From Alphaproteobacteria bacterium (GTDB lineage Bacteria; Pseudomonadota; Alphaproteobacteria; UBA828), in the NCBI GenBank assembly GCA_963667705.1, contig OY763937.1, forward strand, positions 515,821-579,820: 64,000 bases of DNA, read 5' to 3'. The position numbers and the translations under genes were made by a program. This document shows, one piece after another, positions 17,877 through 38,760 of this stretch. The notes below the pieces were generated by a model. It was not told where the DNA came from and did not search any database. It worked only from the letters and a program-made list of their open reading frames with translations. Each line of letters opens with the position of its first letter. The stretch's first letter is position 1.

Positions 17877-18136
17877 CTCCTGTCTCGCTCGCTACCGGGG
17901 ACGCCGAACCTGAGCCCACCCGGTCGCCGCGGACTGCGACTGCCGGGCCGCGGATCGGAGACCGAGCAGCCAGGGAGTGCTCGGGTCTTCAGAACCAGGG
18001 GTGCGACGCTGCGGAGGAGGCCGTGTCCGATCCATGAGTGCCACCCTCCCAACAACGTGCCGCAAGGAGGCATGCAGGTTTCGGTAACGTGACGGTGTCC
18101 TGGTCGGTATGGAATCCGGGCCGGTCTGGCGAATGG

Positions 18137-21100: not shown

Positions 21101-24100
21101 GTCCCCGGGGGCGAATGCGGCCGCATCGCGATGCAGAAGGAGCACCTCCACCGCAGCCGGGCGCAGCAGGCCCTCATCGAGTGCAGTCGCCTGGCACTCG
21201 GCCGCGTCGATGCATTCGAATCGCAGAGCGGCGTCGGCTGCGTGAAACGCCTCGTAGCTCTTGCCGGCGCTATCTTCATCGTGGCTGACGAGCCAATACT
21301 CGCTCTGCCGTCCGGCACCCGACAGGTGCCCGACGCATTGCTCGAGCATGGTCTGCTCGGGCTCCCTGCACCCTGCGAACTCCAAGACGCGGCACGCGCG
21401 GTCCGCTCCGTCAACGGGTTGTTCGAGAGCGGCGAGCAACTCCGCAGGGTCGATGTCGCCGGCGGACAGCCGGTCGGCGAACGCCCGGCCGTTCGGCAGG
21501 AACTTGGGCTGCCAGACGATCCGGTGCTTGCTGTGAGGCAGGTCGCCCCTTTTCAGGTTCGAGTCGAAATGGATGTATTTCTGGACGTAGGCAACGAGGG
21601 CTCCATTGGATTGGTCGTAGAAGCTGATGCTGCCCGACAGCCGCTCGCCCTCGGACGGGTTGAATTGACCCTTGTCGTCGATATCCACGGCTCGATCGGG
21701 AGGATCCCTCAGAAGACAGGTCAGCCGCGGTCCCGACGCCACACCGAGAAACGTCATGTGCTCGATTCGCCGCGGGATGCACAGGTGATCGGGAGTAAGC
21801 AACATGTTGTAGAGAAACGCCTGAAATGCGCCGTCGATCAGCGGGGGGTAGAAGACGTACCCCTCATCTCTGCCGTCGGCCCACAGGGTTTCGTCGATTT
21901 CGAGATCGGCCAGGAAGGACCGGGTCGCCTCGTCGCGCTGAATCTGCCGGATGTTTCTGCAGTGGGGGCCGTAGCCGTACGTATCGCCCAGAACCGCCTC
22001 GAAACGTTCGTAGAGTTCCTCTCCGGAGGCATGCTTGAGGGGCGCGTAGGCGGAGCGGTCGATGTCTCCGAGCCGGCCTGGAGCGTCCAGCGCCGGCGGG
22101 TCGCTCAACACGCGCACCTTGCCCCGACAGTGCGACTCGCTCCTGGTGTCCTCGCCGTAGGGCCGGGTGGAAATGACGAAGGTGTATTCGGACGGGGAAT
22201 TGGCGACCGGATGCAGCGCCGTCTGCAGGCGCACCGGCGTTCTCGGGACCGGGCAAGGCTGAAGAAACTCGATCACGTCGAAGTGCACCGGCGCCCCGCC
22301 GAACGCCTCGAGAATCATCTCGATGTAGCCCGTCGCCGGCATGATCGCCGCGTGATGGACCACGTGGTCGGCGGCCCACGGAAAGGCCCGGTCAGAGAAA
22401 CGCGCCTCGAACATCAGGTGATCGCACGGGATCCGGTGACCGACGAGCGGGCCGTGAGAGTACTCGGCTCCCTGATTGTGGAACTCGTCGTCCGCCATGG
22501 TATCCGCCTTCTTCTCCTCGTCCTTCGGATGTCCGGGCAGCAGGTGAGGAAGGGGCTCCGGGCGCGGGTACCGGGAGGCAAAGTCGAGCGGCACGCCGGC
22601 TCTGAACAATGCCCCCAGCGATTCGAGAAAACCGATGCGCGTATCGCTGTCGCGCATGAATGTCGCGATCGAGGTCGGGGCGGACACACCGTCGGCCAAG
22701 CATTGTGCGATGACGGGCTGCAGCGCGCAGTGCGGCGCAAGCTCGAGCACCGCCTGCGGCCGGTGGTCGCGCTTGACGGCGTCCATCGCGGCGGCAAAGC
22801 GCACGGGCTGGCGGATGTTCGACCACCAGTACGCGCTGTCGAGGCGCTCGGTGAGGCTGCCGGTCACGGATGAAACGAAGGGAACGTCGAGGTCGAAGGC
22901 CAGCTCGTCGAGGAAGGACAGCGCCGCCGCCACGTCCTCCCGGATGGCGTCCATCGCCCGGGAGTGAAAGGCGATGTTTCCGGGAACCAGTCGATTCTGC
23001 AGGTTGCGCCGTTCGAGCTCCTCGATGACAGGCTGCAAGGCGGTTTCGCTGCCGCAAATGACGGTATTGGCCGGCGCATTCTCGCAGGCGATCTCGACCT
23101 GGACCGGCCGGTTCGCATCGAGCCGGAAGGGAACTTCGAGGGTGTCCAGCAACTCCTCGACGCCGCAACGATCGAGGCCGATCGCCAGCATACGGCCCGA
23201 CCCGGCGGCGCGTTGCTGCAACGTGGCGCGATGGAAGACCAGTCGCGTCGCGTCTCCCAGGGAAAGCGCTCCGCAGGCGTAGGCTGCGGCCACCTCGCCG
23301 GAGCTGTGGCCGACCACGCAGTCCGGATAGACTCCCCAAGTCTTGAACAATTCGACGAGCGCGCACTGGAGCATGAAGATCACGGGCTGGGCCAGCTCGC
23401 ATTCGTCGAGCTCCGACTGCGGCGCGGAGAAGCAGGCCTCGCGTAGCGAGACGTCCGAATGTTCGCGCCAGTGCGCCTCGATCGCGTCGATGACGCGGCG
23501 AAATACGGGGTCGGCGCCATAGAGCGCGCGGCCGCAACCGGCCCACTGCGTGCCCTGTCCGGCGAACACCATCGTCAGCCGCGGCTCGCCCTCCTCTGCG
23601 GTCGCAACCGGGGCGCGTTCCTCCGCAACGGCATCGAGCCCCTCTTCGAGCTCCTCCAAGTCGCGCACCGCAAGCGCGGCGCGCGTGGAGAAATGGGTGC
23701 GACGGCGGCTGAGATTGCCGGCCAGCGTATAGAGATCCACAGGCCGCCGGTCGAGCATCTCGCGAAGCTGCCCCGCGCTTAGGGCGAGCGACTTCGCATT
23801 GCGCGCCGAAAGGGGAATGACGTAGCCGGCCTCCGGAGCCAGGGCGACCGACCAGATGCGGGGACGCGCCGGGCGGTACTCGCGCACCACACAGTGCCCG
23901 TTGGCGCCGCCGAAGCCGAAGGAGTTGATGCCGACGACGACGGGATGTTCGGGAAAGGGCTCGACCTCCGTCTGCACCCGCATCGGGCAGCGGTCGAAAT
24001 CGATTTCGGGATTCGGCACCAGGTAGTTCTTCGATGTCGGCGCGAAGGTGCGGCGCTGCATCATCAGGACGACCTTCAGCATCGCGCAATGGAATGCGGC

Positions 24101-25192
24101 CGCTTCCATATGCCCGACGTTGCTCTTGACGCTCGAGACCCGAAGCGGCACCTCGCGATCGAACCCGCCGAACGCCTCCGCGATGGCATTGCCTTCGATC
24201 CGGTCTCCCACCACGGTTCCCGTCGCGTGGGCTTCGACGTAGTCGAACTCCCGGGCAGTGCGCCCGGCACGGGCGGCAGCGGTGCGCATCAGCTCGACCT
24301 GCGCGTGACGGGTCGGCGCGACGATGTTGCGACCGGGGGGCAGGCCCACGGCGTCGTCCGCCGCGCCGGCCGCGTTGACCGCGCTCGCCTCGATCACGAC
24401 ATGAATGGGATCTCCATCGCGCTCCGCCGCGGCCAGGGGCTTCAGCGCGAAGATGAATGCGCCTTCGGAGCGCATGTAGCCGTCGGCCTGGGCGTCGAAG
24501 GAGTGGCACTTACCTTCCGGGCTGATGACCCCCATGAGGTTGAAGCTGCTGCTCAGCCTTGCGCTGCCCAGGTAGGTAACAGATCCGACGAGCGCCTGAT
24601 CGCAGTCGCCGCACTGAAGGGCGTTCATGGCCGAGTGCAGCGCGCTCAGACCGGCGGAACATGCCGTGCAGTACGCGATCGAGGACCCCATGAGGTTGAA
24701 GTGGTACGAGATCCGGTTGGCCAGCATGGCCACGCTGATGCCGATGACGGAGTACTCGCTGACGCCATGCTGAGGCCGCCAGCTCGACACGGCCGGAACT
24801 TGTGCCCCGATGAACACTCCGGTGGAGCTATTGCGCAGTGCATGGAAGTCCCAGCCGGCATGCTCGATCGTCTCCCACGCGCAGTTCAGCAGCATCCTGA
24901 CCTGCGGTTCCGTCTTCATCATTTCGTTGTGGGACATTCCGAACAGTGTGCGGTCGAAGAGCAGCTCGTTGCTGTCGCGGATCAGTCCTTCCCAGGGACT
25001 GGCAAGGCGCCCCGGGCCAGAAAACTCCCCGATCGGCAGGTGGCCTTTGCCGTAGCGATCGGTGATCGGCTCCTGGACGATCTCGCGCTCGGCGAGCAGG
25101 CGCCAGAAATCGGAGTCCGAGCGGATGCCACCGGGCAGGCGGTGGCCGTATCCCACGATGGCGACGTCGCTTTCTCTCCTCTGCGACGTCAT
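18137..25192 (-). CDS. Type I polyketide synthase, fully reducing single module (KS-AT-DH-psiKR/linker-ER-KR-ACP). FAS/mycocerosic-acid-synthase-like. No thioesterase.
   Basis: KS active site TACSAGL with HGTGT and NVGH motifs. AT motif GHSSGE with IAFHS, which predicts malonyl specificity. DH HxxxAxxxxP-like motif. ER motif LIHSAMGGVGQAAIALA. KR Rossmann motif YLVSGGLGGFG. ACP motif GFNSIS. Confidence 0.95.
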   Translation of the reverse strand: MTSQRRESDVAIVGYGHRLPGGIRSDSDFWRLLAEREIVQEPITDRYGKGHLPIGEFSGPGRLASPWEGLIRDSNELLFDRTLFGMSHNEMMKTEPQVRMLLNCAWETIEHAGWDFHALRNSSTGVFIGAQVPAVSSWRPQHGVSEYSVIGISVAMLANRISYHFNLMGSSIAYCTACSAGLSALHSAMNALQCGDCDQALVGSVTYLGSARLSSSFNLMGVISPEGKCHSFDAQADGYMRSEGAFIFALKPLAAAERDGDPIHVVIEASAVNAAGAADDAVGLPPGRNIVAPTRHAQVELMRTAAARAGRTAREFDYVEAHATGTVVGDRIEGNAIAEAFGGFDREVPLRVSSVKSNVGHMEAAAFHCAMLKVVLMMQRRTFAPTSKNYLVPNPEIDFDRCPMRVQTEVEPFPEHPVVVGINSFGFGGANGHCVVREYRPARPRIWSVALAPEAGYVIPLSARNAKSLALSAGQLREMLDRRPVDLYTLAGNLSRRRTHFSTRAALAVRDLEELEEGLDAVAEERAPVATAEEGEPRLTMVFAGQGTQWAGCGRALYGADPVFRRVIDAIEAHWREHSDVSLREACFSAPQSELDECELAQPVIFMLQCALVELFKTWGVYPDCVVGHSSGEVAAAYACGALSLGDATRLVFHRATLQQRAAGSGRMLAIGLDRCGVEELLDTLEVPFRLDANRPVQVEIACENAPANTVICGSETALQPVIEELERRNLQNRLVPGNIAFHSRAMDAIREDVAAALSFLDELAFDLDVPFVSSVTGSLTERLDSAYWWSNIRQPVRFAAAMDAVKRDHRPQAVLELAPHCALQPVIAQCLADGVSAPTSIATFMRDSDTRIGFLESLGALFRAGVPLDFASRYPRPEPLPHLLPGHPKDEEKKADTMADDEFHNQGAEYSHGPLVGHRIPCDHLMFEARFSDRAFPWAADHVVHHAAIMPATGYIEMILEAFGGAPVHFDVIEFLQPCPVPRTPVRLQTALHPVANSPSEYTFVISTRPYGEDTRSESHCRGKVRVLSDPPALDAPGRLGDIDRSAYAPLKHASGEELYERFEAVLGDTYGYGPHCRNIRQIQRDEATRSFLADLEIDETLWADGRDEGYVFYPPLIDGAFQAFLYNMLLTPDHLCIPRRIEHMTFLGVASGPRLTCLLRDPPDRAVDIDDKGQFNPSEGERLSGSISFYDQSNGALVAYVQKYIHFDSNLKRGDLPHSKHRIVWQPKFLPNGRAFADRLSAGDIDPAELLAALEQPVDGADRACRVLEFAGCREPEQTMLEQCVGHLSGAGRQSEYWLVSHDEDSAGKSYEAFHAADAALRFECIDAAECQATALDEGLLRPAAVEVLLLHRDAAAFAPGDWEFWRRLLVAGGLALVSHSEGDVLEPGAGWAVVRAAARSTLLQAPQSWAKPLNATAVPTPRWVVGEPQSPAQDWPSLLDDPEVYPIAFEPLVCGEVHDIDEWPRVADLQAVDFFCGRDPQDPTGEGVVSAFVALVRALVSYRTEHAESRCRVTVVTRGAAFDVQDPRGCGLWGAVRSMAIEVGEDAGIDFRLVDLGADDDLKTLASLARCDLRDREVAVRGGRLWVPRIESIRDHAPCVPAGDETTYRLCLDNPGQIGGLQMKTYEPAALGPGMVEVDVKAAALNFRDVMATLGLLPSAAYERSALGLEVGMEASGVVRRVGEGVDRCLAGDEVIFTQGGCIANRAVVDAPLVFSKPARLDMEQAASSLSVYLTAYYALVHLARLSEGQSVLIHSAMGGVGQAAIALARRAGATIYATAGSEAKRDRLLELGASAAFDSHSESWYDQLMGATGGEGVDVVLNSLAGRHLALCLEALRPGGWHCEIGKVDIYSDNPLGLYVFRKNLRFAAVDVDRLMVDDPWLLRRLSETCLDLLERGELPPLPITVYDYEDYAKALRLMTSGKHQGKLVLRSPPAGVHPQFPIVDRRPLLDPDATYLVSGGLGGFGLCLLPYLVSVGARHLTLMDRDPERRRSADWLRESSSLQYMAHECEIDIVAGDVAIAADVERCVASLRRPLKGVFHLAGVLDDRLLDTMSRESVETVFAPKATGALNLHRATAGHPLDLFVMVSSTASTFGNPGQINYSAASAYLDGLATWRRGQGLPALSYNIAAVAEVGMASRNHHVLRMLRMAGMPPVSVHFAIANLDYALRRLSDSDHLVTALFKRVPLTVDSADYMRIGRLMSNHDAFQGHSDDRLTLETVMTQIAEKVAELCGHDEGDMDEPLASFGFNSISVAELVAFLQNQFNFQVSALELMTTATCQSLAHAIVHRAEQPEEVEGETDAVESADAPLSGRLRGRRRPSEFASVLEDHFPPVLCASRNEMTSES

Positions 25193-25326
25193 GCTGTCGC
25201 TCGGGGTCTCGGCACGACGGCAACGGCCGCGAAGCGGCCAGACACGCGTGCATGCCTATTGTGCCTCGATAGCATAGCCTTCAGGTCACTTGATGGGTTG
25301 TCGACGACTGTGCATGGTGCTTGATT

Positions 25327-25338
25327 TGTCATGTGACA
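25327..25338. promoter_or_regulatory. Perfect 12-bp palindrome TGTCATGTGACA nested inside a larger inverted repeat (CACTTGATG...CATCAAGTG) upstream of the PKS gene. Candidate operator.
   Basis: Direct reading of the sequence. It lies in the 250-bp gap between the RND gene stop and the PKS start. Confidence 0.3.
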
Positions 25339-25444
25339 TCAAGTGGTTGACATTGGAGTCATCCAGGGTGATTGCGACGGGAGATTCGGCAAACGACTCT
25401 CTGCTGCCCATGTTGTCCGCCGTAAAGCGCGCGACGGGCCGCGA

Positions 25445-28400
25445 TTAGTCGTGACGACCCGCGGCGATCATCACCAGCGCCGGCAGCACGAACAGGATCG
25501 AAAGCGTGGAGAACACAAGTCCACCCACCATGCTGACGACGAAGGGCACGAACGCGATCAGCTCATCGCCGCGCTCATAGAGCAGGGGCGAGATCCCCAG
25601 CACCGTGGTGAGGGTGGTCAGGAACACCGGCCGGAATCGCTGCCGTGTCGCCGCGGCTGCGGCGGCGATGGCGGGGATCATCGCGTTGTCTCGGCGGATC
25701 GTGTTGTAGCGATCCAGCAACACGAGAGCGTCGTTCACGACCACGCCGCCGACGGCAATCATGCCGAAGATCGACATGGTGGTCAGGTCCCAGCCCAGGA
25801 TCCAGTGGCTCACGATCGCGCCTGCGAAGGCGATCGGAATGCCCACGACCGCAATCACCGGCTTCCAGTAGCTGCGCAGGAACGCCGCGATGAGGGCGTA
25901 GATCGCGATCAAGACGATGGGGACGAGAACCGCCAGCGTCTCGAGCATGTCGCCCTCGTCCCGCGCACCGGCTTCGACCTCGACAGTGAGGCCGGGATAT
26001 GCCGCCAGAAGGTCGGGAATGATCTGGTCGCGAACCTCCCGCCGCGCCTGAATCGGCGTGATCACCGCAGTGTCCGCCCGCCCGTTGACGCGCGCCGCCC
26101 GCTTGCCGTCGATCCGCGTCAGCGTCGCCGGCTCGCGCTTCTCGGTGATCGTCGCCACCAGCGAAAGCGGGATTTCGCCGCCACCCGGCCGATGGATTCG
26201 TTCGCTGGCCAGCTCGCTCAGGCTGCGCCGCCGCTCGGCCGGATACCTGACCACCACGTTGATTTCCTCGCGGCCCCGCTGGATGCGCTGGACATCCGCG
26301 CCGTGGAAGCTGGAGCGTAGCTGCTTTCCAATGAGCGCCGGCGTCAGCCCGGCAGCCTTCCCTACCGGGGTCAGCTCGATCTCGAAGTGGCGTTTCCCCA
26401 GCGCCAGGTCGTCATGGATGCCGTAGATCCCCGGCACGGTCGCCATCCCCGAGCGCAACTCGGCGGCGGCGCTTCTCAACGTCTCCATGTCGTCGTGCTT
26501 GAGCGAATAGGAAACGCTCGGCCTAGCGGCAATGCGCCCGGAGCGGAATTCGACTCTCTCCAGGTTCGCCACGGGACCGACGGCCTTGCGCCATGCCCGC
26601 TCGACTTCGGGCGCGCTCGCGGAGCGATCCACCTGATCGCTGAGATGCAGCCGCACGGAGGCGAGATGGCTGCCGTTCAGCCGCTCTCTGACTTTCCACT
26701 CCGCATCGATGTTGCCGACGATCATGCTCACCGCGTCGACAGGAGTTCCCTCAAGCTCGTCGTTGAGGCCGTGCGCCGCCTCGGCGAAGCGATCGGCTGC
26801 GGCCAGCGTCTCCTCGAACGGCGCGCCCACCGGCAGATAGATGTCCGCCTGCACGTTGTCGGTGCTGCTCAGGTTCTCGTCGAAGAGGACGATGCGAACG
26901 GTGTCGGTTCCGAGGAGCAGGACGGCAGCGACCAGAACCAGGAGTGCGCCTATGATCGACAGCCAGACGTTGCGCACGGCCCATGAGGCCGCAGGCGCCA
27001 CGACCCGGTCGCGCACCTCGTCCAGCCATCCGCCGACCTGGCTCTGCACGTCGCTCAGCGGAGAGAGGCTCCAGCGCCTTTCGTGAGACAGGTGAGCCGG
27101 AAGGATGAAGAATGCCGCAACGAGGGAGACGAGCAGGACGAAGATCGCGACGTAGGGAAACACGTTCACGATCTGGAACGCGGGCGACGTGATGAAAAGG
27201 AACGGCAGGAATGCCAGAATCGTCGTGATGGCGCCGATGGTGAGCGGGCCTACCATGGCACGCGCGCCGGAAATCGCTGCATCCAGCGCGTTCTTCCCCT
27301 TCTCGCGTTCCGCCGCGATGCTTTCCCCCACCACCACGGAATCGTCCACGACGATGCCCACCAGGAGGAAGAAGCCGAAGATCGTGCCGAGATTGAGCGT
27401 GAGGTCCGCAGCATCGAAGAAGAGCAGCGAGCCTACGAAGGACAGGGGGATGCCGACGGTCATCCACAATGCGATGCGGAGCTCGAAGACCAGAACGAGG
27501 CTGATGAACACCAGGATCGTGCCGATCGCTCCGTTCTTCACGATCTCCAGCAGCCGGTCGAATACGGGGCTGGCATTGTCGTTCCAGATTCCGACGCTCA
27601 CGCCTTCGGGCGGGCTGTAGGCCGCAAGCAGATTCCTGATGTCCTCCGCCATATCGACGACCGACTGCTGCTCGGCCGCATCGACGCGAACGAGCACCGC
27701 CGGATGGCCGTTGACCTCGGTAACCACGTCCTCGTCGACGAACCCGTCGCGAATCGTGGCGATGTCGCCGAGCGTCACGATCGTGCCGCCGACCCGGGTG
27801 ATGAGCGGAATGTCCTCGAAATCCTGGCCGACGCTCTTCTTGGCGACGGTGTGAAGAACCACGCTGCCGGTGTCCGTCCGTATCTCGCCCATGGTGAGGT
27901 TGAGGGACGCCCCTCTTATCGTCCTGGACACTTCGGCGATGGAAAGGCTGTGGCGGCGCAGTTCCTCTTCGCTGAGCTCGATCGTGATTTCGCGGTCGCG
28001 GGTGCCTTTCAGAGACACCTGAGAGACGGACGGCAGCGCCATCACGCTGTCGCGCAGGTCTTCCGCCGCGCGGCGCAGTCCGTCCTCGGACAGACTGGAG
28101 GACACGACCGCCAGCGTCATGACTTCGTGGGAGACCGTGAGAAGCTGGACGTCCGGCTGTTCCGCCCGGACCGGCGGGAAGTTCTCGATGCCGTCGATCG
28201 CACTCTGAATATCGTTGAAGACGGCGTCGGAATCCGCGAAGGTCGCCATCTCCACCGTGACCTTGCCGAGGCTCTGGCTCGCGGTCGATACCACGCGCTC
28301 GACGCCCGGCAGCCCGACGACGGCCTCCTCGATGCGGCGGTTGATGTCCTCCTCGACCTCCTGAGGCGAAGCGCCCGGATACAGCACCGACACGGCGGCC

Positions 28401-28600
28401 CGCCGCGATTCGAAATCCGGGTAGTACTGGACGATGAGTTGGAGCCCCGAAAGCACGCCGCCGACGATCAGCAGGATCATCAGCAGGTTGGCGGCAACGG
28501 GATTGCCGGCGAAGTAGGCGATCAGCCCCGACTTCAGGCCAGTCGGGCTCGGCTGCGCCGCGGGCGCGGCGTCGGTGCTGCCGGAGTCGGTCATGCTCAT
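25445..28600 (-). CDS. RND-family efflux transporter permease (AcrB/HAE1-like)
   Basis: 1051 aa, 12-TM architecture with two large periplasmic loops. The N-terminus is typical of RND permeases. Confidence 0.9.
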   Translation of the reverse strand: MSMTDSGSTDAAPAAQPSPTGLKSGLIAYFAGNPVAANLLMILLIVGGVLSGLQLIVQYYPDFESRRAAVSVLYPGASPQEVEEDINRRIEEAVVGLPGVERVVSTASQSLGKVTVEMATFADSDAVFNDIQSAIDGIENFPPVRAEQPDVQLLTVSHEVMTLAVVSSSLSEDGLRRAAEDLRDSVMALPSVSQVSLKGTRDREITIELSEEELRRHSLSIAEVSRTIRGASLNLTMGEIRTDTGSVVLHTVAKKSVGQDFEDIPLITRVGGTIVTLGDIATIRDGFVDEDVVTEVNGHPAVLVRVDAAEQQSVVDMAEDIRNLLAAYSPPEGVSVGIWNDNASPVFDRLLEIVKNGAIGTILVFISLVLVFELRIALWMTVGIPLSFVGSLLFFDAADLTLNLGTIFGFFLLVGIVVDDSVVVGESIAAEREKGKNALDAAISGARAMVGPLTIGAITTILAFLPFLFITSPAFQIVNVFPYVAIFVLLVSLVAAFFILPAHLSHERRWSLSPLSDVQSQVGGWLDEVRDRVVAPAASWAVRNVWLSIIGALLVLVAAVLLLGTDTVRIVLFDENLSSTDNVQADIYLPVGAPFEETLAAADRFAEAAHGLNDELEGTPVDAVSMIVGNIDAEWKVRERLNGSHLASVRLHLSDQVDRSASAPEVERAWRKAVGPVANLERVEFRSGRIAARPSVSYSLKHDDMETLRSAAAELRSGMATVPGIYGIHDDLALGKRHFEIELTPVGKAAGLTPALIGKQLRSSFHGADVQRIQRGREEINVVVRYPAERRRSLSELASERIHRPGGGEIPLSLVATITEKREPATLTRIDGKRAARVNGRADTAVITPIQARREVRDQIIPDLLAAYPGLTVEVEAGARDEGDMLETLAVLVPIVLIAIYALIAAFLRSYWKPVIAVVGIPIAFAGAIVSHWILGWDLTTMSIFGMIAVGGVVVNDALVLLDRYNTIRRDNAMIPAIAAAAAATRQRFRPVFLTTLTTVLGISPLLYERGDELIAFVPFVVSMVGGLVFSTLSILFVLPALVMIAAGRHD

Positions 28601-28612
28601 GGCCCGGCTCCG

Positions 28613-29797
28613 CTATTCCGACGCCTGCGCGGCGCTGACCTCGACTGCCAATCCCTCTCGCGCCCCCGTCAAGGTGCCGACGACGACGCCCTCGCCCGCG
28701 TCGAACGCCTCCACAACCACGCCAACGTCGGCGTGCCCCAGCGTGCGCGGCGCGACGGCCTTCAGCGCGCCGCCTTCGACGATCCAGACGCTGCCCCGGT
28801 CCTGAATTGCCGATTCCGGCAGTACGAGCACGTTGTCATGCACGGGCCCAGCGATCGAAACCTCCACGAACGAACCGGGGAGCGGCAGCGTCTCGGCCGG
28901 GTGAGCCGCAGCGAATTTCAGGAAGACCCTCGCGAGACGAGACTTGGGACCGATGATCGCAGACGTGCGCTCCACCACAGCGTCGTACGTTCCTGATGCA
29001 GTCCGAACCGTGGCGGAGCGACCGATGGCCGGCGCGAGATAAGCCAGACTGTCCTGCTCGATGGGCGCTCTGACCTGGAGCGCGTCGGTCCGATACACGG
29101 TGCCCAATGACGAGGCACGGCCGACCAGCTCGGCGGGACCGACGAACTGGCCGACATCGATATCCGCCGCTGCGACCCGGACGTCGTGAGGAAGGGATAT
29201 CTCCGTTCGATTCAGCCGGAGCTGCGCCAGCTTCTCTTCGGCCTGCGCCTTCATGAGCGCGGCTTCCGCCTTCGCTATGTGTGGCGCGCGGCGAACCGAA
29301 TCGGGAATGTCGGCTCCGGGGTGTTCGCGCGTGAACGAGGCTACGCTTTCCTCCGCCTTTGCCTTCTCGATCTGGACCCGGGCCGCAGCTTTCGCGACCT
29401 TCGCGGCGGCGACTTCGAGCTCGAGCTCGTACTCGGCCGGATCGACCCTGATGATGGTCTCGTTCGCGGCGATCGACCCGCCGTTTCTGAAACTGGGCGA
29501 GACCCAGACCACACGGCCGCCGACTTCGGACGAGACTCTCACGTTCCCGTGCAGCGTGACCCCGCCGGTTAGGTCGACCGTCAGCGCGTGTTCTGTTGGC
29601 GTCGGTTGAATGACCGCGACGGTTGGCTTGGCCTGCTCGACCGCCAGGTCGGAGATGGGGTCGCGATCCACGCCGCTCGGCGCCTGCGCGAAATAGAGCG
29701 CGACTCCGACGGCGGCCAATATCAGGATCAGCTGCGCGTAGCCCAACCATTTGGGACGGCCGGATCTACCTTGGGGCTCTGTCGTTTCTTGTGCCAT
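28613..29797 (-). CDS. RND efflux periplasmic adaptor (membrane fusion protein, HlyD family)
   Basis: N-terminal TM anchor, coiled-coil and lipoyl/beta-barrel regions. It lies immediately upstream of the RND permease, 12 bp away. Confidence 0.85.
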   Translation of the reverse strand: MAQETTEPQGRSGRPKWLGYAQLILILAAVGVALYFAQAPSGVDRDPISDLAVEQAKPTVAVIQPTPTEHALTVDLTGGVTLHGNVRVSSEVGGRVVWVSPSFRNGGSIAANETIIRVDPAEYELELEVAAAKVAKAAARVQIEKAKAEESVASFTREHPGADIPDSVRRAPHIAKAEAALMKAQAEEKLAQLRLNRTEISLPHDVRVAAADIDVGQFVGPAELVGRASSLGTVYRTDALQVRAPIEQDSLAYLAPAIGRSATVRTASGTYDAVVERTSAIIGPKSRLARVFLKFAAAHPAETLPLPGSFVEVSIAGPVHDNVLVLPESAIQDRGSVWIVEGGALKAVAPRTLGHADVGVVVEAFDAGEGVVVGTLTGAREGLAVEVSAAQASE

Positions 29798-30059
29798 CGC
29801 TCATTCCGAGTGCGTCTGACCAGGGCTCCACCGATCCGACTGCGCCAAGCGTACAGCCCGCGGCGCCGGACGTTGCTATCCGCCCCGCTTCCTTCGTATT
29901 CGACAGCAAATCACGTGAATTGTGAGGAGGCCGAAACCGTCGCTCCAAAGTTCAGCGACGGGTTGGCTGCCGATCGCCGCCTCGCTGGGCTTGACAGTCC
30001 TCAGTGTACCCTGCCTCCGTCGTGATTCCCTGTCAGCCAGGGCGGATAGGAGGCACACG

Positions 30060-31802
30060 TCAAGCCACCGCGGATCGCGCGACTTCATTCGCGCTTGAAT
30101 CCAGTGCGCGTTGGAAGGACTCCAGCGCATCCTCCAGCCCATCTCCCCGGTAGCGAAACTCATCGGGTATGGTCTGGTAGCGCGCCTGGGCTCGCTCGAA
30201 CGACGCCTGTCTCCGATTACTGAATTCCTCCGCCTCCGAAACGCGGTCAGGCACCGCCTCTGGGAACATCTGCAGCTCGCTCCTCAGGAAGCTCAGAAAG
30301 TCATGGATGGCGATCTGCTGACGGCCGATCCGCTCGAAGTGGTGACCCATGGCCGCCAGGTAGATCGCGTCCGGCAGCATGCGGGGGTAGTCCTTGGAGA
30401 CCTTGCCGATGAACTTCGAATAGGCATGAAGCTGCTTGGCGGAGAGACAACGGCGAACGCGCATGAAGGCTGCATCGATGTCGTTCCTGCTCCTGGGCTT
30501 TCGAAGATGCCCGACGGGCTTCAGATGCCTGAACAGAGTGAGGCAGCGGCCGAAGTAATTCTCCAGGGTCGGATCGTAGAGTGTGGCGAGCACCCGTTTG
30601 TATCCCTCGATCAGTGTCCTGTAGTCCATCTCCGGCTTGAAGTTGAGAGGCATGGCATTGGTTCCGATCGGCGCCTCCAGAAGCCGGTTTTCCGACTTCA
30701 TGCGCTCGTACATGTCCGTGCCCTTCAAGGCGGTCAACAGGTAGATGGGGGCTACGGGAATGCCGGTCTCCTGGATGAACTCGATCTGGGCATCGAACAC
30801 GCCCTCGTCATCGCCATCCAGACCCAGGATGAACCCGCCTTGGACCTGCATCCCACGCTGCTGGATTTTTCGGACGGCAGTGAAGATGTAGTTTTCCTGG
30901 TTCTTGCTGGTGTTCTGCGGCTTCTTGGTCTTGAGTAAGGCCTTGGGGTTCGGGGTCTCGATACCGACAAACACGGTATCGAAGCCGGCCTCGATCATCG
31001 CATCCATCATTGCGTCCATCAGCGCAAGATTCGCACTCGCTTCCGTGGTCAGGGTGAAGGGATATCCCTTGCTCTTTTGCCATTCGGCTATCGCCGGCAG
31101 CAGGTTCATGGCATCCCGCTTGTTGCCGATGAAGTTGTCGTCAACCAGAAAGACCGGGCCTCGCCACCCCAGACGGTAGAGGGAATCAAGCTCCTCCGAG
31201 ACCTGTTCCGGCGACTTGGTGCGAGGCACGCGGCCATAGAGCTTGATGATGTCGCAGAACTCACAGTCGAACGGACATCCCCGAGAGAACTGCACGCTCA
31301 TGGTGGCGTAGTTCGTCAAGTCGATGAGGTCGAAGCGGGGAACCGGCGTCAGGGTCACGTCCGGCTTCCGTGTTTCCCGATAGATTCTCTTGGCCGTGCC
31401 GGCTTCCAGGTCCCGAAGGAAATCCGCAAAGATTTCCTCGGCCTCGTCCAGCACGAAGTGGTCCACGCCTGCGATGTCCTGGTGAAAGGTGGTCGGATGA
31501 GGCCCGCCGGCCACCACTGGAACGCCCGCGTCGTTGCAGCGTTCGACCACGGCTCGCAGCGACAAGTGTTGCGTGATCATCGTGGACGTGAACGCAAGAT
31601 CCGCCCACTCAAGATCGGCGTCGCGCAGCGTACTCACGTTCATGTCCACCACGCGGAGCGCATAGCCGGGAGGGAACATCGCGGCGACGGTCAGAAGCCC
31701 GAGAGGTGGAAAGGTCGCCTTGAGCCCCGACATCTCGAGCGCGTGGTCGGCCCCCCAGAAGGTCGGCGGCTGCTCCGGGTAGACGAGCAGAGCGTTCGGC
31801 AT
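30060..31802 (-). CDS. B12-binding-domain radical SAM protein with a C-terminal DUF4070 (class B radical SAM, methyltransferase-like)
   Basis: CxxxCxxC motif (SRGCPFDCEFCD), an N-terminal cobalamin-binding-like domain, and a C-terminal extension typical of the HpnR/BchE-like group. Confidence 0.85.
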   Translation of the reverse strand: MPNALLVYPEQPPTFWGADHALEMSGLKATFPPLGLLTVAAMFPPGYALRVVDMNVSTLRDADLEWADLAFTSTMITQHLSLRAVVERCNDAGVPVVAGGPHPTTFHQDIAGVDHFVLDEAEEIFADFLRDLEAGTAKRIYRETRKPDVTLTPVPRFDLIDLTNYATMSVQFSRGCPFDCEFCDIIKLYGRVPRTKSPEQVSEELDSLYRLGWRGPVFLVDDNFIGNKRDAMNLLPAIAEWQKSKGYPFTLTTEASANLALMDAMMDAMIEAGFDTVFVGIETPNPKALLKTKKPQNTSKNQENYIFTAVRKIQQRGMQVQGGFILGLDGDDEGVFDAQIEFIQETGIPVAPIYLLTALKGTDMYERMKSENRLLEAPIGTNAMPLNFKPEMDYRTLIEGYKRVLATLYDPTLENYFGRCLTLFRHLKPVGHLRKPRSRNDIDAAFMRVRRCLSAKQLHAYSKFIGKVSKDYPRMLPDAIYLAAMGHHFERIGRQQIAIHDFLSFLRSELQMFPEAVPDRVSEAEEFSNRRQASFERAQARYQTIPDEFRYRGDGLEDALESFQRALDSSANEVARSAVA

Positions 31803-32403
31803 GAGCGTGACCGGCCCCTGTCAACTGGCCGGCTCGTATGTTAGTGCATTGCCGACTTATGGGCCAAGTGAGCTGACGAGGGGGTGTGGACTGCGGTCGG
31901 ACAGAACTTCGGCAAGCGCACGGCGCCCTCAAGTTGTTGTTGGCGGTCACTTAAAGGCGCGGATATTCGATCAACAATGGCGGCTGGGCGGTTATCAGCC
32001 GAGGGACCTGTAATCCTAAATCCGGTAGTTGCCGACGATGGACAGCCGGTTTTCGGGGCGGACTTCATCCCGCCAGCGCTGCCTGAGGCGGCGGGAGCCA
32101 GGGTTGTCGGCCCGAACTGCGGCAGCAGAGGTACTTCTTGAGCGCTTCCGCTTGGATTCGGCGCCAGCGATAATCGGCACTCGACTGCTCCGCACCCCGC
32201 ATCAGCGTATCGAAGAAGCCGGTGATCCGCCGCAAGACCGCGACGACCTCGATCCGTCGCCCGTGGCTCGACATCACCGTCAGCCGCGCGACCGGCGTGG
32301 TGGTGGGTCTGGCGGCCAATCCCGTGGAGAAGAAGCGACCGGCTGGTGATCGGCTCCCGGTGGTGATCAAGATCGGCCAGGAGCACGAACAGACCCCACG
32401 GGT

Positions 32404-35400
32404 CTACATACTCAACCCTCGACTCCTGCGGAGGTGCTTTCCGAGTTTTCGGTCCCGCTTCTCCGCCTTCTCGCGCAGCTCGCGAAGTTTCTCGGGATCG
32501 TTGAGAATATGGGCGAATCCTTTCTGGTTCTCGTCCGGATCCAGGGGCTTGGCCGACGGCCTGTCGAGCGTGTGAGCGAACCCCCGTTGTTCCCGCTCGC
32601 CCTGCCGCCCGGGCCGCTGTTCAGACTTGCGGCGCGCTTCGAGAGTGTGAGCGAAGCCTTGCTTCTGCTTGGGCGTCGGCTCGGGCCGGGACTGTGATAC
32701 CTCCGGCTTTGCGGCGCGTTCGCGGTTGTCGCGGAACCGGTTGCGCAATTGCTCCACGGTGAGCTGTGCCCGGGACCTGCCGATGGTCATGGCGTCGAGG
32801 TAGGCGCCGTACCTGTCCTCGTTGGCGAGGACGGCTTCGCCGGTGGCGGCCAGCATCTCAGCCGCCTCGCGCCATTGGGGCCAGACGTCGAGACGGCTGA
32901 TGGGAAGGCCCTGCTCGCCAGCCTGAGCCTCAAGAACCTTGTACGCCTCGACATGCCGCTCCGCGGCGGCGAGATAGCTCTCGACCGTCTCGCGCGCCAC
33001 GGTCTCGTCGTCGTGATACGCGAGAAGCTCGTCGAGCACGCCGCGTGCGCGTTCGGTCAGCTCGGGATAATCGGCGAGCGCGCGGACGCGACGGATCAGC
33101 GCGTCGTATCCGTCCATCAGCAAGAGCGGAAGATCCGGTTGCTGGGAGCGTGCGACGAGATCGTTCCAGTCGCGCTGCAGCTCCCTGTAAAGCGTTCGCC
33201 AGTCGGGCGGGGGCTCGCGTTCCGGTCCGGGCGCTGCTGCTTCCGAAGTCCGGGGCGGCAGGGACTCTTCGGGAGCGGGTGCGGCGATCCCGGCCGCTAT
33301 GGTGTCGACGATCTGCGCTTCTTCGCGCGGTGCGTCCTGGCGCTTCGCGTCTTGGCGCTGCGTGTCCTGCCGCGCCCGGTGGGCGGCCCTGGTCGTCACC
33401 GACCTGAGGTACTTGCCGGCGCGCGTGTGCTGTCTGCCGAACTCCTCGATTTCGCCCCGGCCGATACCGGCGCGCTCGGCGAGCAGGCGCTCGAACACCT
33501 GCGGACGACGGCGGAACGATGCGGCCTGCTTCATCAGCGCACCGTGCCGGCCGAGAGTCTCTCGGAAAGCCGGCGTCAGCGCCACCGCGTCGCCGTCGGC
33601 GCGCGCACGCCGGCGAAGCTCGTCCCAGGCCGCCATCACTTGCGTGCGCTCCGCCGCGAACGCGTCCACGGCGGCGCCGTGGCGCCAGCCGTTGACGGCG
33701 TGACGGATTTCCTGGGCAATGCGCATGATCGCGTTGTCGTTCACGGCCACTGGTGTCTCTACTGTCGCGCGGCCCTCGGCGGATACTGCCTGCCCTTCGC
33801 CGGGTCCCTCGCGCACCGCACCCGGCTGTCGATTTGCCCCGTTCCCGACGCCGGCCCGTCCAAGCTGCGCTTGTTCGCTCGCTTCGCGCCATGCACCGTC
33901 GGTGACGTAATCGAGCGCCGCCTCCTTGGGTTGCGAGCGCGACCAGCGCTCGGCCAGATAGGCACGGATGTCGCTGTCCAGCACCGGCCGCTCGGCCTCG
34001 TCCTCGGGGAGGCTCTCGGCGATGTCGAAGACGATGGGCGAGCGGTTGACGTAGACGTCGATCCCCTCGCGGTGCCGTGTGGCTGCCGGATAGATCGTCT
34101 CCCGCGCCGGCCGGTCGTCAATCAGCAGGAAGGCGCGGTCCACCGTCAATCCCTGGGCGGACGCGATGGTCATGGCATAGCCGTAGTCGAGACGGATGTT
34201 GTCGTGGTAGTCGCGGATCTCGTCATGGCGGAACTCCACGCATCGCCCGTCGTCGGTGCGCGCGGTGATCTGAACCGATATCTCTGGTTCGGGCTCGCCC
34301 CTGTCCAGATGCGAAGCCCGCCCGGCGCGGCCACTGGCCAGCCGGTTGCGGGCTTTGCGCGTGACCGCCGCGCCTTCCACCTGCCGCGCCTCGATGTCCT
34401 CGACGGTGACCACCGTGCCGTTGAAGAGCTGCTTCTCCCACTGGGTGGCGCCGATGCGCAGCCGGTCGCCCACCGCGATCTCCAGCGGCTCGGTGACCCG
34501 CCCGTCGAGGTCGCGGCTCACCTCGATCACCGCGCGCTTGATGTCCGTCCGTTCTCCGAGCACGCGTTCCCGCATCAACCATGACAATGCGCGCGCCTCG
34601 GCCTTCGTGCGCGCCAGCACCACGGCGGATTTTTCGGGCTCGTCCTTCACGAGCCGCGCCCAGTCGTCGACCAGGCGCCTCAGCGTCTTCTCCTCGTCGT
34701 AGCAGAGATGGAGCCGGCCCCTGAGCCGCCACGCCTCGATCGCCTGCGCGGCTTCGCCGTCCCTGAGCGCTTCGGAGACCGCAACCTGCCACGGCGTGAA
34801 CAGCGGTTTGCGATCCATCGCCTCGTACTCGGCCATGATGGCGTCGCGTTCCTGCGAGCTCGTGAGTCCCGCCCTGAACCGCGCTTGCTCCGGCGTCTCC
34901 CTGTGGACATGGACGAGCACGTCCTCGAGGTCTGCTTTCTGGCGCCGGATGCGGTCGACGCGGACGCTGCCGGCGACGTCGCGGATCAACCTGAGCCCCG
35001 GACCCGCCTCGACCGGCTGCTGTTGCCTGGTGTCGCCGGCGAACACCACCTTGGCGCCGTGGCGCTCGCAGAGCTGCAGGATGTGATGCGCCTGGCGCGT
35101 GGACAGCATCCCTGCCTCGTCCACCACGATCAGGGTGTTGCGGTCGACCTCGAGTTGCCCCTTCGCCGCGAGCTTCAGCAGCTTGTCGACGCAGTAGGGA
35201 CGCGCGTCGCAGTCGTCTCCCAGCGCCACCGCCGTACGCCACGCGACGGCGGTGGGCACGATCTCGTAGCCGTGCTCCCTGTGCAGGTCGGTGATGGGCC
35301 GGAGCGTGGTGGTCTTGCCAGACCCCGCCGCGCCCTCGATCACGGCCACACGGCCGCCCATCGCGGTGGCGTGCCGGATCGCCAGAGACTGCTCCTGGCT

Positions 35401-36735
35401 CAAGGGATAGCCGCCGGCCAGGAGCGTCTCGACCTTGTGCCTGACCGCATCCTCCGGAATCCCGTGGCCGGTATCGGCGGCCATGGACGATGCCATGTCC
35501 TTCACCGCCTGTTCGAGGCCGAGGTTGTGGCGGGTGGAATAGATCTCGGTATGGGCCATGCCCGCCAGCGACTCCGCCGTGGGCTTCTTGGGCTCCAGCC
35601 GCTCGATCTCGGGGTTGCGGCGCAGCCGCTCGATGGCGGTCTTCAGAGCCTCGGGGCCGATCAGGCCGGCCGCCGCATTGGCTGCCGCCTCCACCATGTC
35701 GGGGCGCCGGAACACCGCCTCTTCCCGGGCCAGGTGGGCGGGAAGGTCGTCGAGCCGGGCGGTCAGCTCCCGGATTTCTTCTCGTCCGATCCCGGCCTCG
35801 CGGCCGGTCACGGACCGGATCAGCTCTTCGCGCTCGACAAAGCCCTGCGCCTCCTCGCGCCAGCGCCCGTGGCGTACCTCGGGATCGTTGTCGTGGGACT
35901 TGCCCGCCCGCGTCAGCTTGTTGACGCCCGCCATGCGCGAGGCGTTGCCGCGCGACGGAATGCCCAGCTCTCCGGCCTTGGCAACGATCGTCTTGCGCCG
36001 CTTCGACCAGAAGACCTGCAAGTCTTCCGGCATGCCCTCGATCCGGGTGAAGGCGGAATCGGGACCGTACTGCTCTATCCGCACGCCCAGACGCTCGCGC
36101 AGGTTCCAGGCCAGGGCGTTGCGGTAGACCGCGCCCGCAGCCTTGGCCCAGCTGTAGACCGGGTACTGGTGCATGGCCCGCCACTTGCCGTCCTCCTGCG
36201 TCCGGGCCGCGTTGAAGATGACGCAGTGGGTATGGAGCTGCGGGTCGTTCTCACGGCTGGTGCCGTGCTGGAACATCGCCGCCGCGATATCGGCAGGCAG
36301 GGCCCTGATCCGTCCCTCTCTGTCCCGGATCCGCGTATACGAGCAGTAGCGGAGCACCGTCTCTTCCAGGGCCACCCGGGCGGCGTCGTTGTGCGCCTGC
36401 TCGATCTCACCACGCAGCTCGGGATCGGCGACGGCCCAGAGCGCGGACACGCTCTTGTCGGCCGAGAAGGTCATGTCGAGTCCCGCCGAGCGGTTCTCGC
36501 TGCCTGCGTTCCTGGTGAGTTTCTGGGACCCGTCCGGCGCGAAGCCGTGGTAGAGCCGGTGGAAGTCGCTGCTGTCGACCTTGCCGCCGTTCTCGAGGCC
36601 GAGCAGGCCCGCAGGATTGAACCAAACCCCGTCCGGCTCCTCGCCGGCCGTGTAGTACTCGTTGGGATGGCGGAACGAGCGCTGGCTCTCCAGGTAATAG
36701 GCGGCAGACGCGGCCTGCGCGAGGGTGGCTACCAC
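32404..36735 (-). CDS. traA: Conjugative relaxase-helicase TraA (MobF/TrwC family, Ti-plasmid type)
   Basis: The N-terminal relaxase domain has histidine-triad-like HTHCVIFN and YY motifs. A central RecD-like helicase carries Walker A (GAAGSGKTT) and Walker B (VVDEAGM). 1443 aa. GTG start. Confidence 0.9.
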   Translation of the reverse strand: MVATLAQAASAAYYLESQRSFRHPNEYYTAGEEPDGVWFNPAGLLGLENGGKVDSSDFHRLYHGFAPDGSQKLTRNAGSENRSAGLDMTFSADKSVSALWAVADPELRGEIEQAHNDAARVALEETVLRYCSYTRIRDREGRIRALPADIAAAMFQHGTSRENDPQLHTHCVIFNAARTQEDGKWRAMHQYPVYSWAKAAGAVYRNALAWNLRERLGVRIEQYGPDSAFTRIEGMPEDLQVFWSKRRKTIVAKAGELGIPSRGNASRMAGVNKLTRAGKSHDNDPEVRHGRWREEAQGFVEREELIRSVTGREAGIGREEIRELTARLDDLPAHLAREEAVFRRPDMVEAAANAAAGLIGPEALKTAIERLRRNPEIERLEPKKPTAESLAGMAHTEIYSTRHNLGLEQAVKDMASSMAADTGHGIPEDAVRHKVETLLAGGYPLSQEQSLAIRHATAMGGRVAVIEGAAGSGKTTTLRPITDLHREHGYEIVPTAVAWRTAVALGDDCDARPYCVDKLLKLAAKGQLEVDRNTLIVVDEAGMLSTRQAHHILQLCERHGAKVVFAGDTRQQQPVEAGPGLRLIRDVAGSVRVDRIRRQKADLEDVLVHVHRETPEQARFRAGLTSSQERDAIMAEYEAMDRKPLFTPWQVAVSEALRDGEAAQAIEAWRLRGRLHLCYDEEKTLRRLVDDWARLVKDEPEKSAVVLARTKAEARALSWLMRERVLGERTDIKRAVIEVSRDLDGRVTEPLEIAVGDRLRIGATQWEKQLFNGTVVTVEDIEARQVEGAAVTRKARNRLASGRAGRASHLDRGEPEPEISVQITARTDDGRCVEFRHDEIRDYHDNIRLDYGYAMTIASAQGLTVDRAFLLIDDRPARETIYPAATRHREGIDVYVNRSPIVFDIAESLPEDEAERPVLDSDIRAYLAERWSRSQPKEAALDYVTDGAWREASEQAQLGRAGVGNGANRQPGAVREGPGEGQAVSAEGRATVETPVAVNDNAIMRIAQEIRHAVNGWRHGAAVDAFAAERTQVMAAWDELRRRARADGDAVALTPAFRETLGRHGALMKQAASFRRRPQVFERLLAERAGIGRGEIEEFGRQHTRAGKYLRSVTTRAAHRARQDTQRQDAKRQDAPREEAQIVDTIAAGIAAPAPEESLPPRTSEAAAPGPEREPPPDWRTLYRELQRDWNDLVARSQQPDLPLLLMDGYDALIRRVRALADYPELTERARGVLDELLAYHDDETVARETVESYLAAAERHVEAYKVLEAQAGEQGLPISRLDVWPQWREAAEMLAATGEAVLANEDRYGAYLDAMTIGRSRAQLTVEQLRNRFRDNRERAAKPEVSQSRPEPTPKQKQGFAHTLEARRKSEQRPGRQGEREQRGFAHTLDRPSAKPLDPDENQKGFAHILNDPEKLRELREKAEKRDRKLGKHLRRSRGLSM

Positions 36736-37824: not shown

Positions 37825-38760
37825 TCATGCGCGCCAGACCGGGATACCCATCTGCCGGGCCTTGTCCATCAGGTTGCCGGTGACGCCGCTGCCGGCGAAG
37901 GCGATCACGCCCTTGGGCAGCAGGTCGAGCAGCGCGTCGTTGCGGCGGAACGGGGCGGCGCGTCCGTGCGCCTTCCAGTCGGGGCGGACGATCACCTGGT
38001 CCACGCTGCGGGCCTCGGCCCACTTGGCCGCCACCGTCTCGATGCCGGGGGCGCCGCCGTGGACGAGGACCATGTTGCCGTGCTTGGCGCGGGTGCGGTC
38101 GAGGACGCTCCAGACGGCGGCGGGGTCTGTGACCTCCTTGCCGCCGGTGACCGCGACCAGGGTGCCCTCCGGCACGTGGCTGCTGATCTCCCGGTCCTTG
38201 CGGGCGCGCCTGTAGTCCCGCGCGTCGATCGCTGCCGAGGTCAGCGTTCCGGTCTTCGAGGTATGCGATCCGTTGCGGGGGCGCCACACGTCGCCGGTCT
38301 CAGCGCGGTAGGCGTCGGCGGCGGTTTCGCGCAGTCTCTCGAAGGCGTCCCTGCGGTCGCCGAGATTGCGCGCGCGGTCCGTGAGGAGCTGCAGCTCCCA
38401 GGCCTTCACCTCGGTCCCGTCCTGGGCGGTCTCGAGGTCCTTCATCTCCGGGGTAATGCGGTCCACCGCGCGGTCGAGGCGGCCGATCTGTGCATGGAAG
38501 CAGTTGACGATGCTCCAGAGGAGCGCCTCGCGCTCGTCGGCCATCTGGGTGCCGTCCACGGTGATGCCTTCCACCATGATGCGGATGGCCTCGCCGAGCG
38601 CGCCGGTGGCGTCCTCTTCGTCCCAGATCTCCCGGCTGTCGATCTCACCGCGCTCAGGCGCTGTGCCGTAGAGTGCTGCGTTCTCGCAGATGGCGGCGGT
38701 CTGTGAAGCGGTTGCGGTGTCCTGGTTCGTGTCGATCATGTCGACCTCCCTTTCGTTCAT
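37825..38760 (-). CDS. Hypothetical protein with a C-terminal SLOG/DUF2493-like nucleotide-binding-fold domain, recalled as common on Rhizobiales ICEs and plasmids
   Basis: The C-terminal region LVAVTGG...VLVHGGAPG...IAFAGSGVTGNLM resembles YspA/DUF2493-type SLOG domains. Confidence 0.4.
   Translation of the reverse strand: MNEREVDMIDTNQDTATASQTAAICENAALYGTAPERGEIDSREIWDEEDATGALGEAIRIMVEGITVDGTQMADEREALLWSIVNCFHAQIGRLDRAVDRITPEMKDLETAQDGTEVKAWELQLLTDRARNLGDRRDAFERLRETAADAYRAETGDVWRPRNGSHTSKTGTLTSAAIDARDYRRARKDREISSHVPEGTLVAVTGGKEVTDPAAVWSVLDRTRAKHGNMVLVHGGAPGIETVAAKWAEARSVDQVIVRPDWKAHGRAAPFRRNDALLDLLPKGVIAFAGSGVTGNLMDKARQMGIPVWRA

Follow-up and report, generated by a model that had tools for sequence, protein, structure and literature searches.

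A SwfC-family B12-binding radical SAM gene in a pump-containing swf cluster on a mobilizable-element-like island: a candidate lipid C-methylase

What does a B12-binding radical S-adenosylmethionine (SAM) enzyme do at the head of a polyketide synthase (PKS) locus, and does it act on the lipid that the synthase makes? The question is raised by a stretch of alphaproteobacterial DNA of 64,000 nucleotides (GCA_963667705.1, contig OY763937.1, positions 515,821 to 579,820), referred to here as the window, in which such a gene lies on the same strand as a PKS and an efflux pump. A sequence-only reading of the window had assigned the protein a B12-binding/radical SAM/DUF4070 architecture and proposed it as a C-methylase of the lipid made by a malonyl-only PKS. 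The architecture is borne out by three Pfam domains, each scoring above its gathering cut-off (Table 1), and the start codon is correct, as homologues align over residues 1–580. We are almost certain that the gene is a SwfC-family member of the swf cluster, working with SwfA and SwfB; it enlarges a family already described and is set in a pump-containing and mobile-element-borne variant of the published arrangement.

The swf cluster, consisting of swfA, swfB and swfC, was described from marine-sponge symbionts by Della Sala et al. 2013, Environ Microbiol Rep (PMC3908369), the sources being the Plakortis simplex fosmid pPS11G3 and the Poribacteria locus POR_0549. Compared by description, the window proteins agree in size and domains with all three published ones, that is, SwfA of 2349 residues with KS-AT-DH-ER-KR-ACP organization, SwfB of 832–839 residues combining a reductase and a sulfotransferase, and SwfC of 585 residues with a B12-binding domain and a radical SAM domain bearing CX3CX2C (PMC3908369). 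The window SwfC is 61–87% identical to swf-linked SwfC proteins in 60 loci, which stand in here for the published sequences. Of the swf acyltransferase primer motifs, QCALVEL is exact in the window SwfA and the other differs by one residue (FAGQGTQW vs FSGQGTQW). The acyltransferase domain also bears GHSSGE...IAFHS, which we take to be of malonyl type, so that the synthase appears to be malonyl-specific, as the sequence-only reading had it, and the domain search found no C-methyltransferase (C-MT) domain in SwfA. SwfB carries the motifs GATGFVG, YPWSK and GINRTGTTF. The differences from the published clusters lie in the arrangement: there the order is A-B-C or A-C-B, whereas the window has swfC-MFP-RND-swfA-swfB with gaps of 250–260 nt, a resistance-nodulation-division (RND) pump with its periplasmic adaptor (MFP) embedded in the cluster, and the whole carried as cargo of an integrase/relaxase/coupling-protein island in an alphaproteobacterium that probably has a second, unlinked swfC copy.

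The tie between SwfC and the synthase was followed through the family. A collection of species-representative genomes contains 581 relatives of SwfC, of which the best 80 are 55–87% identical and come, according to their record titles, from about a dozen higher taxa (Alphaproteobacteria, Gammaproteobacteria, Nitrospirales, Latescibacterota, Acidobacteriota, Gemmatimonadota, Spirochaetia, Rhodothermales, Chloroflexi, Binatia and Poribacteria among them). The relatives are found almost only in metagenome-assembled genomes (MAGs) with names pointing to marine sponges, several of the Gemmatimonadota being titled Candidatus Palauibacter irciniicola or rhopaloidicola and other bins being named RHO, IRC, COS or SB; the sponge link is drawn from these names and from published work (PMC3908369, PMC9426513). 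Linkage was counted over 83 SwfC-like loci, namely the 80 best relatives and three from exact look-ups. A homologue of SwfA (60–92% identity) and/or SwfB (50–85%) adjoins swfC in 60 of the 83, with SwfA homologues present in 55; 16 copies have neither neighbor although 8 kb or more of sequence is available to either side, and the flanks of the remaining 7 are too short to judge. The genes occur in at least five orders: 40 loci read A-C-B, the genes being ~70–75 nt apart, 5 read A-B-C and 4 read C-A-B; the window and L075 have C-MFP-RND-A-B, and in L006 swfC is divergent from MFP-RND-swfA. Three loci (L025, L034 and L037) have two swfC genes in tandem between swfA and swfB (~10000–13600), an arrangement that would agree with a single lipid being tailored twice. 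Across 43 loci the distance matrices of the three proteins are correlated (Mantel r = 0.68 for SwfC–SwfA, 0.71 for SwfC–SwfB and 0.84 for SwfA–SwfB; P = 0.001 for each pair), a correlation to which common organismal history also adds. Synteny that is conserved over many phyla in shuffled order is strong evidence of a functional tie between SwfC and the synthase as far as genome comparison can tell, and the link put forward in the sequence-only reading stands, since we found linkage in most loci rather than an unrelated subfamily with a PKS-less gene context.

The genes that accompany the core cluster in other genomes bear on the nature of the product. Since SwfB, downstream, joins a reductase to a sulfotransferase, an alkyl sulfate is the likely product. 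An RND match is present in 18 swf-linked loci and the MFP family in 16, and a major facilitator superfamily (MFS) exporter family in 5, where it lies just downstream of swfB in the three loci with tandem swfC genes. In L065–L073, which belong to Gemmatimonadota and include several titled Candidatus Palauibacter, the gene order is outer-membrane factor, MFP, RND, CysD, CysN/C (sulfate adenylyltransferase plus adenylylsulfate kinase), permease, STAS protein, swfC, swfA and swfB, so that these loci carry both their own supply of 3′-phosphoadenosine 5′-phosphosulfate (PAPS) and a three-component exporter. The recurrence of exporters and PAPS-supply genes supports a predicted product that is sulfated and exported. 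A Rosetta-stone fusion independently ties SwfC-like radical enzymes to sulfation: the 948-residue protein P0182, encoded on two independent contigs (L095 and L096, 10001–12847), joins a SwfB-type sulfotransferase (29% identical to SwfB residues 491–821, E = 1e-30) to a SwfC-like radical SAM part (40% identical to SwfC). Next downstream of P0182 is a thiamine-diphosphate-dependent enzyme, and there is no PKS nearby; the link to sulfation is here found in a different pathway. About 21 loci from many lineages have, upstream of swfA, one or two STAS-domain proteins of ~115 residues (PF01740) and a 92–94-residue protein lacking a Pfam match (in L016, for example, at 1573–1920, 2063–2410 and 2455–2739); the small protein is probably the 92-residue POR_0546-like ORF19 of the 2013 study (PMC3908369). 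Both kinds of gene are absent from the window.

At the level of the protein, 84 family members were compared. The cysteines of the CX3CX2C motif (C176, C180 and C183; nt 31254–31277) are invariant, as are G99 and G100 of the Rossmann domain, in which P101 is at least 90% conserved, and 167 positions are at least 97% identical. Apart from the motif, the conserved cysteines are C89 and C420, and because there are only five in all, an auxiliary Fe–S cluster is unlikely. Sulfur insertion and SPASM-type chemistry (SPASM/twitch proteins, methylthiotransferases) were rejected on the same ground, no auxiliary cysteines being conserved. Tetraether synthases carry several Fe–S clusters, and this type is disfavored for SwfC because extra conserved cysteines are missing. 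The C-terminal helical extension is present in all 84 members with variable sequence; that it might be a docking element is speculation.

An AlphaFold model built from a diverse alignment (relatives of 33–87% identity) reached a pLDDT of 93.1 and a pTM of 0.91; a model from a shallow alignment (79–100% identity, pLDDT 55.5) was discarded. Foldseek matched the diverse-alignment model to experimental structures with E values of 1e-12 to 5e-16, at 13–18% identity and template-modeling (TM) scores on the query of ~0.5–0.57. The best match, AprD4 (6FD2, TM 0.72 on the target), was followed by MgmA (9CCB), CysS (9N1B), TsrM (6WTE), OxsB (5UL4) and TokK (7KDX), and then by MiaB/RimO; a sequence search of the PDB gave only weak matches (MgmA, 6e-10; CysS, 3e-4). 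The model shares with these six enzymes from AprD4 to TokK a Rossmann-type N-terminal domain and a radical SAM barrel, which confirms, for the predicted structure, the class B architecture of SwfC, with no close structural homologue. In contrast to what is proposed for SwfC, none of the six acts on a plain alkyl chain. Action on a chain tethered to an acyl carrier protein (ACP) has precedent, as CysS and TokK were crystallized with pantetheinylated substrates.

Sequence placement leads to a large, HpnP-like surrounding. The superfamily around SwfC comprises 1247 clusters at 50% identity for E ≤ 1e-30 and 21838 for E ≤ 0.001. Within it, SwfC proteins group tightly by themselves at 55% identity or more, and an exhaustive search collapses the family to a few representatives at 52–63% identity. 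The nearest annotated plasmid proteins found by tblastn are ~530 residues long, 38–43% identical and titled 'B12-binding domain-containing radical SAM protein', and they are encoded by stand-alone genes in Chroococcidiopsis, Acaryochloris, Bradyrhizobium, Komagataeibacter, Methylocystis and Rhizobium. To judge from sequence, they fit the 'HpnP and HpnP-like' group, which combines B12-binding, radical SAM and DUF4070 domains (Hoshino et al. 2023, PMC10697835) and in which activity is proven only for true HpnP (PMC10697835). HpnP, the hopanoid C-2 methylase, is cobalamin-dependent and methylates an unactivated carbon of a lipid (PMC10697835). SwfC has the three-domain architecture in common with it and differs in two ways: it is linked to a PKS rather than to hopanoid genes, and it has an additional C-terminal helical extension of ~85 residues that the ~530-residue relatives apparently do not have, as their tblastn matches stop near residue 498. 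In a similarity-network-style placement, as suggested in the sequence-only reading, SwfC belongs to a separate, tight family within the large HpnP-like superfamily, and no curated subfamily was matched. Its NCBIfam scores are far under the cut-offs for HpnR (57 bits, cut-off 650), HpnJ (58, 578), BchE (52, 481), PhpK (59, 600), the ladderane enzyme TIGR04072 (51, 360), MgmA TIGR04014 (52, 360) and the MJ_1487 family TIGR04013 (66, 251), and there is no HpnP model among the NCBIfam matches. A BchE-like cyclase, HpnR or HpnJ, a P-methylase and the ladderane enzyme were rejected on these scores.

Considering the cluster as a whole, we give a probability of about 0.55 to the explanation that SwfA, SwfC, SwfB and the pump make and export a methyl-branched alkyl sulfate. 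SwfA would build a saturated, unbranched acyl chain on its own ACP, iteratively, from malonyl units. The single [4Fe–4S] cluster of SwfC would cleave SAM to a 5′-deoxyadenosyl radical, which would strip a hydrogen atom from the chain at an unactivated methylene or methyl position. Methylcobalamin bound in the N-terminal Rossmann domain would then donate its methyl group to the resulting carbon radical, a second SAM recharging the cobalamin. SwfB would then convert the thioester into a primary alcohol and sulfate it with PAPS, and the product, a methyl-branched alkyl sulfate, would be carried by the RND/MFP pump into the envelope or out of the cell. The domain architecture, the place of the protein in the SwfC sequence family and its conserved linkage with SwfA, SwfB and exporters are established here; presumptive in this scheme are the use of cobalamin, the transfer of a methyl group, the site of modification and the sequence of the steps, and the substrate of SwfC may be either the acyl-ACP or the alkyl sulfate.

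Judged by itself, C-methylation as the putative chemistry of SwfC is evenly balanced. It would accord with the HpnP-like architecture, the missing C-MT domain in SwfA and the methylases among the structural neighbors (MgmA, CysS, TsrM and TokK). The other monomodular PKS found throughout sponge symbionts belongs to the Sup cluster (Fieseler 2007, as cited in PMC3908369). Methyl-branched lipids are its presumed products, and its synthase SupA has a SAM methyltransferase domain in line; there is none in SwfA, and any swf methylation would come from a separate radical enzyme. The proposal itself is not new: the 2013 study had already suggested SwfC to be a methyltransferase and the product to be a methylated alkyl sulfate, placing SwfC in its tree among methylases with HpnP as the nearest characterized relative (PMC3908369), so that the C-methylase idea of the sequence-only reading is a rediscovery of a published hypothesis. 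Such methylated alkyl sulfates would be missed by standard lipid work-ups (PMC3908369).

Several observations weigh against this explanation. Its chemistry is proposed from sequence; later papers, to 2023, still name the function of swf unknown (PMC9426513, PMC10227082), and a literature search for a characterized swf product or PKS-linked sponge alkyl sulfates returned nothing beyond 'function unknown'. SwfC reaches no curated NCBIfam subfamily model, nor does any of its 56 nearest 50%-identity representatives (33–62% identity) at E ≤ 1e-60. The top structural match is AprD4, and a 2026 review states that class B methylases and non-methylases are not distinguishable by any feature of their structures (PMC12931638). 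The closest homologues of the window SwfC, at 84–87% identity, are stand-alone genes. In four of five SwfB-seeded loci with sufficient flank from JGI metagenomes (L087, L088, L090 and L091) swfA and swfB have no swfC within reach, the gene adjoining them in the fifth, and one fosmid lacking swfC was also found in the 2013 study (PMC3908369). Finally, a single operon is at most putative: the MobF/TrwC relaxase gene, swfC, MFP, RND, swfA and swfB follow one another on one strand, as expected from the 'co-operonic' arrangement in the sequence-only reading, but three of the four junctions among the swf genes are 250–262 nt long, so that only the common direction is established. These gaps share no common element, and a consensus scan of 15000–33000, which did no better than on shuffled sequence, gave no promoter and nine terminator-like matches, none within the gaps.

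The explanation that survives best beside methylation is that SwfC acts on the SwfA/SwfB lipid without methylating it, by dehydration or dehydrogenation, rearrangement, cyclization or C–C cross-linking, with cobalamin in another role or none. AprD4 is a non-methylating diol dehydratase whose Rossmann-like domain is not known to bind cobalamin, and OxsB, also matched, is a ring-contraction enzyme. The lack of a curated methylase match counts in its favor, and the sulfotransferase–radical SAM fusion hints that the sulfate ester could be the substrate or a handle. Most characterized class B enzymes are methylases, however, and a fully reducing synthase leaves neither a diol nor any further functional group on which AprD4-type chemistry could act, nor is there the auxiliary Fe–S cluster that some cross-linking enzymes would be expected to have. 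Non-methylating members do occur, indistinguishably, within the main group of class B enzymes (PMC12931638), and it is the position of SwfC next to HpnP among methylases in the published tree (PMC3908369) that also argues the other way. We therefore regard non-methylating action as a possible but tentative alternative.

That the gene lies next to the PKS by accident, being a stand-alone-type HpnP-like enzyme for a hopanoid or another envelope lipid unrelated to the PKS, is unlikely. The idea draws on the stand-alone copies. The window SwfC has more than 120 cluster representatives at 79–87% identity, and a neighbor-joining tree groups it with stand-alone L004, L003, L001 and L005; the neighbors of such copies are unrelated (arsenite oxidase and hydantoinase, for example). 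A further swfC gene is probably present in the genome of the window, since P0016, with 87% identity, is likely to be encoded on the same 4.15-Mb contig. The gap between swfC and MFP, 262 nt, points in the same direction, as does the 57%-identical relative P0123, which has no PKS beside it and because of which the swf-linked family is taken to start at ~60% identity. Against this, swfC keeps its place with MFP-RND-swfA in L075 and, divergently, in L006, indicating that the window arrangement is inherited and not accidental; L009, which is linked, and L012, which stands alone, come from one genome, suggesting that stand-alone copies are paralogues; linkage holds for the 60 loci counted above; and the GC content at third codon positions is 0.79 in swfC and 0.78–0.85 in the neighboring genes. 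Stand-alone, second-copy and swfC-less loci together describe swfC as an accessory tailoring gene, often duplicated or unlinked.

Further copies and loci of this kind may be listed here. Stand-alone swfC genes 78–87% identical to that of the window are present in the alphaproteobacterial MAG loci L001–L005, L007, L008 and L012. P0123 (L097 and L098, 10001–12319) has 772 residues with a ~250-residue C-terminal extension without a Pfam match, and its gene is divergent from a neighboring arn-like operon for aminoarabinose modification of lipid A, with ArnT, ArnB, ArnC, ArnA and ArnD types. In L087 and L091, which lack swfC, the RND permease is 90% identical to that of the window (the MFP of L087, 88%) and swfA only 64–69%, so that pump and synthase appear to have recombined independently.

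A wider proposal, that SwfC is not a simple methylase but acts on, or together with, the sulfate ester that SwfB makes, as the sulfotransferase–radical SAM fusion hints, is improbable in our view. It would mean a B12/radical change of an alkyl sulfate without precedent, for example through an alkyl-cobalamin and C–C coupling or by rearrangement, and a symbiosis-specific envelope lipid whose genes mobile elements would have distributed over about a dozen sponge-dwelling bacterial lineages. Very improbable is its particular form in which the sulfate ester is an activated intermediate, displaced by SwfC cob(I)alamin to an alkyl-cobalamin whose alkyl group passes to a substrate radical, so that chains are joined. 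The tight SwfC–SwfB coupling and the sulfotransferase–radical SAM fusion are circumstantial evidence for it, and curacin biosynthesis, cited in PMC3908369, offers an earlier case in which sulfate is the leaving group, but swfA–swfB loci without swfC exist, a sulfated end product would account equally well for the exporters and PAPS-supply genes, and we know of no precedent for an alkylcobalamin derived from an alkyl sulfate in radical SAM enzymes.

Returning to the proposed swf pathway and its setting, the cluster looks like cargo of an integrative mobilizable-element-like island of ~9.6–53 kb, with a GC content of 0.55–0.70 compared with 0.70–0.735 in the housekeeping flanks. Relaxase and coupling-protein genes are present, and no mating-pair (VirB-type) genes were seen in the island. 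No direct repeat brackets it, and the sole tRNA gene is a tRNA-Gly at 59767–59841; the ends of the island are therefore approximate, set from the GC profile and gene content. The MobF relaxase was found in none of the 83 other loci. Cross-phylum spread of swf had been noted earlier (PMC9426513). Next to swfB, a ResIII/DEAD helicase follows or overlaps the TOTE primase in a defense-like module. The segment at 46000–53000 is low in GC (0.55–0.62) and contains large open reading frames (ORFs) with in-frame tandem repeats, which are probably repetitive surface lipoproteins.

Table 1. Features of the window, with positions counted from its first letter
Feature	Position	Strand	Residues or length	Basis or remark
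swfC, B12-binding/radical SAM/DUF4070 protein	30060..31802	-	580 aa	complete ORF, ATG to stop
B12-binding (PF02310), cobalamin-binding-type Rossmann domain, N-terminal in SwfC	31419..31718	-	aa 29-128	46.3 bits, cut-off 32.1
Radical_SAM core (PF04055) of SwfC	30801..31292	-	aa 171-334	62 bits, above gathering cut-off
DUF4070 (PF13282) of SwfC	30318..30719	-	aa 362-495	80 bits, above gathering cut-off
C-terminal helical extension of SwfC	30063..30317	-	aa 496-580	alignment and model
RND periplasmic adaptor (MFP), likely export partner	28613-29797	-		HlyD_3, TIGR01730
RND inner-membrane permease	25445-28600	-		ACR_tran, 428 bits; synteny
swfA, monomodular type I PKS/fatty acid synthase (FAS), KS-AT-DH-ER-KR-ACP	18137-25192	-	2351 aa	Pfam
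swfB, thioester reductase and PAPS-type sulfotransferase fusion	15381-17876	-	831 aa	NAD_binding_4 and Sulfotransfer_3
Tyrosine integrase, probable left island edge	9668-10981	+		
PIN toxin	11456-11857			80-aa ORF upstream
TOTE conflict-system archaeo-eukaryotic primase domain protein	12008-14430 region			PF22548, 335 bits
MobF/TrwC relaxase-helicase	32404-36735	-		immediately upstream of swfC
YAcAr/SLOG protein	37825-38760			
Single-stranded DNA-binding protein (SSB)	39801-40334			
Type IV coupling protein (TraG/VirD4 type)	42999-44975	+		
Four 84-nt repeats	47014-47433			
Three 195-nt repeats	49263-49847			inside 785-aa ORF with TbpB-type beta-barrel C-terminus
Three 63-nt repeats	52486-52697			

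Sponge microbiomes have two 'signature' lipid clusters, and swf is one of them. In the window swf is carried by an integrase/relaxase island, the first concrete example we found, which gives a vehicle for its distribution across phyla; relatives of the cluster, in addition, recurrently acquire exporters and PAPS-supply genes. Together with the tandem and stand-alone paralogues and the sulfotransferase fusion, these exporters and PAPS-supply genes narrow the possible pathways, and the window, in which the cluster is complete, includes its exporter and lies on a long contig, is a practical candidate for heterologous expression. If SwfC indeed methylates an unactivated alkyl carbon, B12-radical SAM lipid methylation would extend from hopanoids to polyketide or fatty alkyl sulfates, and the finding would point to overlooked sulfated, branched lipids at the interface between symbiont and host.

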